Assembly: GCF_048403405.1 (NCBI RefSeq)
Contig: NZ_CP183129.1
Origin: Escherichia coli
Lineage (GTDB): Bacteria > Pseudomonadota > Gammaproteobacteria > Enterobacterales > Enterobacteriaceae
DNA: 64,000 nt
Strand: one strand, 5' to 3'
Shown: piece by piece, positions 28,296-31,200 of the stretch
How positions within the stretch are numbered: position 1 is the first letter of the stretch
How the letters are laid out: every line of letters starts with the position of its first letter
Program-made: the position numbers

Positions 28296-31200
28296 TCAGC
28301 AACAGCGCACACCAGGTGGCGCTCATGCCGGAACGTCGCCAGCGGAACAGACGGTGATGAAAACCGTAATAATGCATCAGACGACCAGCAAGCAAAACGA
28401 TGCCGCAAATATGCACCATCCAGGTTTCTGCGCCATTCATTTCCATAAACAGCATCAACACAATCGCGATGGGAATATATTCCACCGCGTTACCATGAAT
28501 GCGAATAGCGCTTTGCAGTTCGCTAAAACCGCCGTCGCCATAGGCAACGCGGTACTGCATTCGCAGGCGAACGACATCAAAAGAGAACTTCATTAATAAC
28601 AACGCACTTAAAACGGCATATAGCGCGCTTACCATACAAACTCCCTTTAAAATGGCCGATGGCACCTGTCTATGATAGGTGGCAAATTCAGAAAAGAGAA
28701 GATTGCTGTGGAATAGCCGGAACTGCTCCGATCTCTGGAAGCGTTTTACGTAAGTCTTCCCACAGGGTATGTACCAGTTCCGGGGCCTGGGCAATATCTG
28801 GCGTATGTAAAAAAAGATAAGGCGTAGTGGTCTGATGCCACTGCGCTAATTTTTGTAACCAGACCTGAAATAATTCCCGGTTTTGCGTCATATCATCACT
28901 ACCGATAAAACGGATCAGCGGATTTGTCGCCGTCAGTACAGCATGTACCGGAACTTTAGGTTTTTTTCGTTGAGCGTCGCGAATAGCTTCACTGTGTGGA
29001 CGTGCTGCATGAACCGGGCGGCTGTCTAAAATCACCCGATTAACGCCGCGCTGATGTAAACCGCGATTAAGCGTTTGCTCCTCTTCCCCTTTGGCGAAAA
29101 ACTGTGGATGGCGGACTTCCACACCATAATTAAATTCGCCGGGAAGGGAATCGAGAAAATGCCAAAGCGCAGGCAGATCCCGTGGGCCAAATGTGGCAGG
29201 CAGTTGCAGCCAGTATTGCCCAATGCGCGGCGCTAACGGTGACATGCGGGTCAAAAATTCAGTCACTAAATCATCGCAATGCCGTAATGCTGCCTGATGC
29301 GAAATGGTCGCCGGAAACTTAAAACAGAAGCGGAAGTCATCTGTGGTCTGCTCACGCCAGCGCAGGACAACCTCGGGTTTGGGCAGGGCGTATAGCGTGG
29401 TGTTGCCCTCCACACAGTTAACATGACGGGTATTAAGGATTAACTTACTGATTTTAATAAGCCTCTGGTGTCACTTTGGTGACTATGGGGCATCATTGGG
29501 ACATAATCTGTCAGCTTCTGATTCAGCATTGCGATCTGTTCTGCATTGCTGTCAGTCATCCATGCTCCGTATACATTGAATACCATCTGGGCACTTGCAT
29601 GGCCCATCTGGCTGGCAATGAAGCTTGGGTTTGCTCCGGCAGATAATGACCAGCACGCATAAGTGTGTCGTGACTGGTATGCCTTTCGATGCCTGATCCC
29701 TGCACGCTTAATGGCTGTTTCCCATGAGTCACCTACAGAATCGACTTTGTAGACAAAACCTACCTGTTCGCTTTTTCTAACCACTTGAGGGTTAAACACG
29801 AAAGTACATTCATGGTTCACTGAACGTCCATATTCACGTAGTTGCACCTTGATGTTGTACTGCTTACCCAGTCTTGTCATTTCAGCCTGATTTTTCAGGA
29901 CACTGATAGCGGGCTGGATAAGGTGCACAACCCTGTTTGTGCTTGCTTCAGTTTTCGGTAGAGTGAACTCACCAAGTTTCGTATAATTGCGCCTGATGGT
30001 AATTGTTCCTGCCTTCAGATCGATATCTTCCCAGGCCAGGGAGACCAGTTCACCGTGACGCATTCCTGTGTACACAGCCAATGACCACAGGTTTTTCGTC
30101 TGCTGATGTCGGCAAGCATCTATCAGGCGAATAAATTCGTCACGAGTTAGCGGATCTGGCTCTGCCCTGGCTCTTTTAAGAGGCTTAATTCCCTGGAAGG
30201 GATTTGCTTCTAAGTAACCGTGATCTGCAGCAAACTGAAACATTCCAGCGATTGTCGTCATGTAATAATTTACAGTAACGACGCTCCGTCCTTTTGCTGC
30301 TGCTTTGTTTTTCGTTGAATTCTGATACCCGGTCAGCAAATCTTTCCTGATATACAGCAATTCCTCTTTGGTTACCGATGACACCAGTCTACTGCCTCCA
30401 ATTTTCGGAACCATCGTTCTTGCAACGGATTCATAGCGATTGAATGCATTTGCAGAGATTTCCATTCGTTTCAGATCCAGCCACTTTTCTTCAAGTTCCT
30501 TCACCGTAATTTCTTTTTTACTTACCCCAAAAGCCTGAAGGTTGGGGGAGTCAGGGAACTGTGCAGCATAATCAAAGCTTCCTGTGCGGATGGCAAAACA
30601 TACTGATGTCCGCAGTTCCCCGGCGATCTTCCTGTTCTTGGCAGTGTCAGGGACACCAAGATTTTCCCTGACACGTTTACCTTTAAAATTAAACCAGATG
30701 CGTAATGTGCCGCCGTGGTTTTCGACGCCTGTTGGATATTTGACTTTATCCATCGATACCTCCAGACGCCCAAGAGCGATACGAGCTTACATATTTCATG
30801 ATATTAAATCACCTGGGTTGTTTGTTTTTCATTGAGGCGACCCAGGCATCTATTGCTTTTCTGTTATACATACATTCACTGGAAGGCTTTGGATTACCGT
30901 CTGGTGATACGTGAATATACTCTCTTCCAACCATCCAGCATTCTTTCCGGGCCCGAAGAATTGTGCCTGGTTTGAGCCCGGTAATTGCGATAAGAACGCT
31001 TTCACAAACCCATTCATTGGGAGCCAGTTGAATCACATTGCCCATGTATTACCTCACACAACACTCAGCCCACGGCAGTGGCACCACACTTCAAACATTC
31101 GCTTCACAACTTCACGACAGTAGAAGCCGTCAACATCTCGCGTCAGGTCATAGCGATTGCAGTAACGCTGGTGGACCCATCGTTCAAATGCTTTATTCAT

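Follow-up and report, generated by a model that had tools for sequence, protein, structure and literature searches.

In bacteriophage lambda, the genes between exo and xis (orf60a, orf63, orf61, orf73, ea22, ea8.5 and orf55) are expressed early and are non-essential, and they influence the lysis-lysogeny decision and induction (PMC8614690). Orf55 (lambdap35) and Ea8.5 are the products of the last small early-left genes before xis, downstream of the Ea22-like gene; they are variable, small, non-essential and uncharacterised or only modelled. Orf55 is predicted to consist of three strands and one helix, and the structure of Ea8.5 has been solved (PMC8614690). In the Rac prophage, the gene for RcbA (YdaC) lies directly upstream of xisR, and the same operon encodes YdaE, a small zinc-binding protein. 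Here we examine a 48-amino-acid (aa) open reading frame (ORF) at positions 31054..31200 on the minus strand of a 64,000-nucleotide (nt) stretch of Escherichia coli contig NZ_CP183129.1; this whole stretch is referred to as the window, and positions follow its numbering. The ORF precedes the excisionase gene (xis) of a lambdoid prophage, and its conservation argues that it is a genuine protein-coding gene under purifying selection.

The small ORF is located between the recombination and ea22 genes on one side and xis on the other, as is the lambda exo-xis set, and it takes the same place in this plan as the genes for Orf55 and Ea8.5. It is likewise the positional counterpart of rcbA. No similarity was detected to lambda Xis, Orf55, Ea8.5, Ea22, Orf61, Orf63 or Orf60a by hmmsearch with filters off (all seven scores were negative), and the predicted helix-hairpin-helix fold of the window protein differs from those of Orf55 and Ea8.5. 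RcbA gave no BLASTP alignment to the small protein, and the hhalign probability for YdaE was 2%. Some members of the same protein family are found among the small genes of the lambdoid nin region (NinB/NinG to Q), where they overlap tightly with their neighbours. In contrast, the window copy belongs to the leftward operon, and since the small protein is without any Pfam match, it has none to a nin family.

The small ORF and its translation signals

The ORF was first pointed out by an earlier inspection of the DNA without database searches (the sequence-only reading), which described a 48-aa frame with an AAGGA ribosome-binding site that fills the gap between two co-oriented genes and encodes four cysteines. 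Each of these features is present on the minus strand. The translation from the ATG start is MNKAFERWVHQRYCNRYDLTRDVDGFYCREVVKRMFEVWCHCRGLSVV, with cysteines at positions 14, 28, 40 and 42. The Shine-Dalgarno (SD) sequence AAGGAAG (31213..31207, minus strand) lies within the final codons of the DUF4222 gene upstream, and the spacing from AAGGA to the ATG is 8 nt. Homologous loci have a purine-rich SD at the equivalent place (aaggaag, acggagg, caggagg and aaggagc). The DUF4222 gene stops with TAA at 31206..31204, which leaves 3 nt (AGA) before the ATG of the small ORF; the two genes share one reading frame that is split by TAA AGA. At the other end, the TGA stop (31056..31054) is followed by 8 nt and then by the ATG of xis (31045..31043), and the stop overlaps the GAGG SD of xis (TGAGGTAATACATG; 31052..31056, minus strand). 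The predicted protein has a mass of 6.0 kDa and an isoelectric point of 8.9. It is hydrophilic, with a grand average of hydropathy of -0.5, and no membrane segment was found in it.

A 48-aa ORF alone is not rare in this DNA, as 85 ORFs of at least 30 aa were counted in the surrounding 7 kb. Of 20,000 shuffles of the 158-nt gap, 125 (0.6%) contained a complete ORF on that strand with a length of 147 nt or more. Since small ORFs are so frequent nearby, the real test of this one is conservation. By analogy with RalA, which lies opposite rcbA in Rac, the locus might have specified an antisense RNA or contained an internal promoter or terminator. We rejected this, because no promoter-like or terminator-like site was found at the small ORF and Rfam gave no match in 28000-36000.

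Conservation and annotation of the small gene

With the single sequence as query, 109 clusters at 90% identity were found; with a profile the number rose to 214, nearly all of them 44-49 aa long. All of the clusters come from Enterobacterales, including E. coli, Shigella, Salmonella, Citrobacter, Enterobacter, Klebsiella, Cronobacter, Pantoea, Hafnia, Serratia and Xenorhabdus as well as related metagenomes, and an exhaustive representative search gave no credible match outside this group. The protein matches the hidden Markov model of PHROG 3871, a family listed with function unknown, over its entire length (residues 1-48 on profile positions 1-48 of 48; E = 2.3e-33, 115 bits). Codon alignments were made for 11 loci from 6 genera. 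The ratio of nonsynonymous to synonymous substitution rates was 0.15-0.37 when loci were compared with the window copy and 0.09-0.24 for distant pairs, in which synonymous sites were saturated. Over the whole alignment, 23/17/37 columns vary at the three codon positions; for codons 16-39, the core, the numbers are 7/7/20. Only the frame of the small ORF, among the six possible, is open in all 11 loci. Because both the frame and the length are kept across genera and synonymous change is in excess, the small ORF is, judged by comparative sequence analysis, a genuine protein-coding gene under purifying selection. The sequence-only reading had proposed frame preservation in related prophages as a check of the ORF, and the family passes it clearly with more than 200 clusters and the 11 aligned loci.

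The same reading had called the ORF unannotated. This holds for a gene track with a 60-aa threshold and for some older records: no feature lies under the match in phiP27, VT1-Sakai and several other older or minimally annotated phage records. It does not hold for current public annotation, since RefSeq/PGAP lists a hypothetical protein. In E. coli KE40 the identical protein has the entry WP_016248041.1, a hypothetical protein, and an 83%-identical locus carries WP_000557643.1. An E. coli O104:H4 strain has the region at 99.6% identity. Phage BP-4795 lists a 44-aa allele as ORF3 (YP_001449240.1), and Fels-1 lists STM0895.1n with a note that cites BP-4795 ORF3. These entries and PHROG 3871 represent the same family at the same position before xis, differ from the window copy by allele-level changes only, and are all listed as hypothetical or of unknown function. 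When the 147 nt were used as a blastn query, 898 of 5426 complete E. coli genomes were positive, with up to four copies per genome. In the sampled rows with a substantial match, nearly all matches fell under the label "hypothetical protein"; the exceptions were two 44-nt matches under "DUF4222". The small gene is thus already catalogued, and it is an ordinary finding rather than a new one.

Several kinds of matches were examined and set aside. Forms of 58-102 aa that looked like fusions are start-codon extensions, rare read-throughs or, in one case (P0126), a deletion fusion with DUF4222; none is a domain fusion. The match H128, which is partial and falls under a "DUF4222" feature, is the remnant of a deletion. 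The long repeat proteins P0118 and P0119 from the exhaustive search, with CPEVITRVYQVTD-type repeats, show a chance likeness between a short segment and their repeated motif.

Two further observations concern the distribution of the gene. In several prophages, Shiga toxin (Stx) 2a phages among them, all that is left of the small ORF is its final 40-60 nt, fused to a truncated DUF4222 pseudogene before xisR (as in E. coli 2014C-4587, L023 1107-1244). Such deletion remnants show that the module is decaying in some lineages. In addition, an 83%-identical copy is present in OM284015.1 (Elizabethkingia phage EKP1, 22923-23066), which is unexpected for a host in the Flavobacteriia. This record may contain mis-assigned or contaminating enterobacterial prophage sequence.

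Conserved residues and predicted structure

The conservation of individual residues was assessed in an alignment of 127 cluster representatives, each covering at least 43 of the 48 positions. The cysteines highlighted by the sequence-only reading proved to belong to the less conserved part of the protein. Cys14 is seen in 1 of the 127 and is private to the window allele, with Gly in 118. Cys28 is found in 100 (79%) and is otherwise replaced by Ala, Ser or Tyr. Cys40 is found in 106 (83%; replaced by Arg, Ser or Tyr), Cys42 in 111 (87%; replaced by Arg, Leu or His) and His41 in 95 (75%). Distant members have a single cysteine left, which is Cys28 in P0114 and Cys40 in P0115. The best-kept positions are Tyr17 (all 127), Tyr27, Phe5 and Met35 (126 each), Arg34 (125) and Val32 and Glu6 (124 each), followed by Leu19, Asp22 and Glu30 (123 each). 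The conserved signature reads RYDLTRDxxGxYxREVVKRMFEVW. No invariant set of three or four Cys/His ligands was found across the family. Since the cysteines do not form such a set and the conserved signature does not consist of Cys/His ligands, an obligate metal site appears unlikely from the alignment.

AlphaFold2, supplied with a 44-sequence alignment, predicted two helices, at residues 3-13 and 30-42, and between them a hairpin in which residue 21 is bridged to residue 27. The predicted local distance difference test (pLDDT) score of this model was 89 and the predicted template modelling (pTM) score was 0.67. The net charge of family members averages +2.4 and ranges from -2 to +6. A tandem construct with a 30-residue Gly/Ser linker served as a crude test for a homodimer. 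Its best model had a pTM of 0.63, and the five models were inconsistent with one another, with mean pLDDT values of 65, 57, 54, 40 and 39.

Searches for remote relatives gave little. Pfam assigned no family, and its best hit was a noise match to SoxD (E = 0.18). No Pfam match was obtained for the small protein to a zinc finger, to a family of Xis, AlpA or recombination directionality factors, or to a helix-turn-helix (HTH) or ribbon-helix-helix (RHH) signature. PADLOC, which covers defence and anti-defence systems, reported 0 families for the small protein and four neighbouring proteins. In a sequence-profile search of the PDB the best E value was 0.66 (ScoE and a vaccinia membrane protein), which we judged to be chance. 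Foldseek found no structural match in the PDB to the AlphaFold2 model, and a structure search of BFVD found only a member of the family itself.

Genes adjacent to the small gene in phages and prophages

In most of the loci that were opened, the small gene directly precedes an excisionase-type gene. The latter is a member of the Pfam family DUF1233 in E. coli and Salmonella, of Exc in Pantoea and of a PyocinActivator-like family in Klebsiella and Serratia, the last of which was read as xis-type from its position alone. The upstream neighbour varies and may be a DUF4222 gene, a gene for a LexA-like DNA-binding protein or a ClpX-type zinc-finger protein, or an unknown. The match is 1.6-2.9 kb from the start of the record, on the minus strand, in at least 29 of 49 phage records, and int and xis were present there in the records opened.

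At the junction itself, the sequence GTGTGAGGT followed by 4-5 nt and ATG recurs in E. coli, Klebsiella and Salmonella, whose xis-type genes fall into two Pfam families. In Pantoea, with the third xis-type family, stop and start overlap as GTGA. The common 44-aa alleles are shorter and terminate 18 nt before an xisR-type gene that has its own SD. The C-terminal LxVV is therefore dispensable, and it probably doubles as a ribosome-binding site for xis.

The family was also encountered away from xis. In Hafnia-type phages the gene directly follows NinB, and elsewhere it sits between NinG and the Q antiterminator. In PhiR5_2 it comes after NinH, where it is called as an 80-aa ORF, and in Citrobacter phage K1M it forms a cluster with DUF2591 and DUF551 genes between tail genes (a moron cluster). 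The small gene therefore behaves as a mobile early-region accessory gene and not as an obligate partner of one excisionase.

The prophage surrounding the small gene

The lambdoid prophage in the window is inserted at yecE, beside cmoA, yecN and yecE. The xis gene directly downstream of the small ORF (30809..31045, minus strand) encodes a DUF1233 protein (PF06806, E = 9.5e-33) and matches PHROG 539, excisionase. The tyrosine integrase gene (29440..30753, minus strand), taken from the ORF list and the RefSeq annotation of the identical locus, is the last leftward gene and lies beside yecE at the attachment-site end. Around this site at yecE (DUF72; 28688..29460), the annotation of the identical KE40 locus has the yecE coding sequence begin within the integrase gene, whose 3' end it overlaps by 19 nt (L001 3593-3611). 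Phages that integrate into genes usually replace the end of the target gene; here the phage end appears to supply a replacement 5' end for yecE.

Directly upstream of the small ORF is a DUF4222 gene of the RgdR family (31204..31482, minus strand; PF13973, E = 1.1e-13), for which PGAP gives a 243-nt form (31204..31446). RgdR carries DUF4222 (PMC10877973), and RgdR (ECs1581) is a prophage-encoded activator of the type III secretion system of the locus of enterocyte effacement in E. coli O157:H7 (PMC3378721, PMC10877973). The 92-aa form of the window gene, which starts with TTG, has RGQ at residues 19-21, near the place of the RGD motif in RgdR (residues 20-22); the form called by PGAP is 80 aa long.

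All genes from 36064 down to int are on the minus strand. Their order is RdgC (34997-36064), an HD-domain protein, DUF551, an Ead/Ea22-like protein (32989-33588), a 171-aa unknown, a 314-aa mosaic, DUF4222, the small ORF, xis and int. This gene order makes it fair to place the small gene in the early-left operon of the prophage, as had been stated before. Beyond this string are the gene for a cI-like repressor with an HTH and an S24 peptidase domain (37320-37946) and rightward cII-like, Rha/Ash and replication genes. The 314-aa ORF (31531..32475, minus strand) looks like a mosaic, as several unrelated PHROGs match separate segments of it and it ends with only the first 16 positions of the DUF551 domain. 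RefSeq has a shorter 259-aa hypothetical protein at the identical KE40 locus, and the ORF may represent a recombinant or truncated accessory gene. The 171-aa ORF (32472..32987, minus strand) overlaps its neighbour by 4 nt at the 3' end. It has no Pfam or PADLOC match and is an uncharacterised accessory gene.

Discussion

The original observation of a small ORF before xis is confirmed, and its interpretation is partly supported. We favour, with about half of our confidence, the view that the ORF genuinely encodes an accessory protein of the phage, small, soluble and mildly basic, which would be an autonomous early modulator that binds a partner. From the anatomy of the locus, the gene would be transcribed with the other early-left genes upon prophage induction or a new infection, and it would be translated from its own SD with termination coupled to the initiation of xis. 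As the stop of the small ORF overlaps the SD of xis, ribosomes that finish the former would be well placed to start the latter, and this arrangement suggests translational coupling. The product is predicted to be a compact mini-domain of helix, beta-hairpin and helix that is free-standing and independent of a fixed set of cysteines. Since the family is found away from xis, the protein would most likely act on its own. By exclusion and analogy, it would do so by binding a partner, as a non-essential early modulator similar to the small lambda exo-xis and nin proteins and not as a dedicated subunit for excision. That the partner is a host protein is a guess, and we do not favour it over nucleic acid.

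A number of points weigh against this proposal. Partner binding, and a host protein as the partner, would come from analogy and exclusion only. The searches of Pfam, PADLOC, the PDB and BFVD gave no relative of known function by sequence or fold. Nothing on expression or phenotype was found in the literature on BP-4795 ORF3, STM0895.1n and PBV4795, and no matching peptide string was found in the small-gene supplement of the RIBO-seq study of enterohaemorrhagic E. coli Sakai. The strong positional link to xis together with the kept overlap of stop and SD could reflect a role tied to excision, and the conserved charged residues could serve the stability of the fold instead of a binding surface. 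Separately, the text of the paper "Cryptic Bacterial Microproteome" has no mention of prophage, excisionase or integrase.

Other explanations were weighed against the same evidence. Short ORFs are common in this region, and the small ORF could in principle be a chance frame instead of a gene. This idea is refuted by the conservation of the frame across genera with saturated synonymous sites, and the 0.6% returned by the shuffle test speaks against it too, so that we consider it extremely improbable. The association with xis leads to two alternatives. One is that the ORF is mainly a translational-coupling device, such that Xis synthesis requires full translation of the early-left mRNA and the peptide itself is of little consequence. 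The overlap of the stop with the SD of xis (TGAGGT, then 4-6 nt and ATG), the junction kept before xis-type genes of two Pfam families, the GTGA overlap in Pantoea and the position directly upstream of xis in most opened loci, with at least 29 of 49 phage records placing the match 1.6-2.9 kb from the int end, are all consistent with such a device. A mere coupling ORF, however, would need no selection on its amino acids, which is strong here (ratio of nonsynonymous to synonymous rates 0.09-0.25), with changes in the core falling mainly on third positions. Furthermore, the same protein is encoded without a nearby xis in nin regions and in the tail moron cluster, the 44-aa alleles end 18 nt before an xis with its own SD, and genes throughout such operons normally have tight stop/start overlaps. 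We regard coupling as the main function as unlikely. The second alternative is an accessory factor for site-specific recombination that binds Xis, Int or attachment-site DNA and tunes the timing or direction of excision. It would explain the persistent adjacency to xis and the co-translation in E. coli, Salmonella, Klebsiella, Pantoea and Serratia, and it fits a mildly basic protein as well as the nin-region copies that adjoin the DNA-recombination genes NinB, NinG and RusA. On the other hand, three unrelated xis-type Pfam families and differing integrases speak against one specific protein partner, copies of the gene exist without xis, and the protein has no recognised DNA-binding motif, no Pfam match and a conserved surface of mixed charge. 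We consider this role possible but rather doubtful.

The remaining alternatives concern the protein itself. It could be a small dimeric nucleic-acid-binding protein, given the mean family charge of +2.4, the conserved Arg16, Arg21, Arg29, Lys33 and Arg34, and a pTM for the best tandem model that is higher than expected for two independent 48-residue domains. Points against such a protein are the disagreement among the five tandem models, in which the confidence of the domains is below that of the monomer, and the lack of an HTH or RHH signature in Pfam. Acidic residues (Glu6, Asp18, Asp22, Glu30 and Glu37) are moreover interleaved with the basic ones, and the net charge of some members is as low as -2. 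Such a protein therefore seems improbable. A zinc-binding or redox-sensing microprotein that depends on its cysteines is suggested by the presence of Cys28, Cys40, His41 and Cys42 in most members and by the hairpin-plus-helix layout of the AlphaFold2 model, which we take to be loosely reminiscent of a beta-beta-alpha zinc finger. Against it stand the near absence of Cys14 from the alignment and the other cysteines being less well kept than Tyr17, Tyr27, Phe5, Met35 and Arg34, which are present in 125-127 of the 127 representatives. Distant members with one cysteine, the absence of a zinc-finger match in Pfam and the confident AlphaFold2 fold without metal point in the same direction, and we hold this possibility to be very unlikely.

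As it stands, the significance of the finding is modest, in that a correctly spotted ORF is an already catalogued hypothetical gene. It does illustrate that a 60-aa annotation threshold hides a real gene under selection, and that some older reference phage records lack it. There is a slim chance that the protein represents a new type of microprotein regulator, that is, an early mini-fold without a detectable solved analogue which reprograms a specific host factor or times the production of Xis and excision. If true, this new type of regulator would be present in about one sixth of E. coli genomes. The family is common, including in Stx phages, Fels-1 and Klebsiella prophages, and it borders the excision module. 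If a function could be assigned to it, be it modulation of the host or control of Xis synthesis, this would add a piece to the poorly understood exo-xis accessory region, which is known to influence prophage induction in Stx phages.

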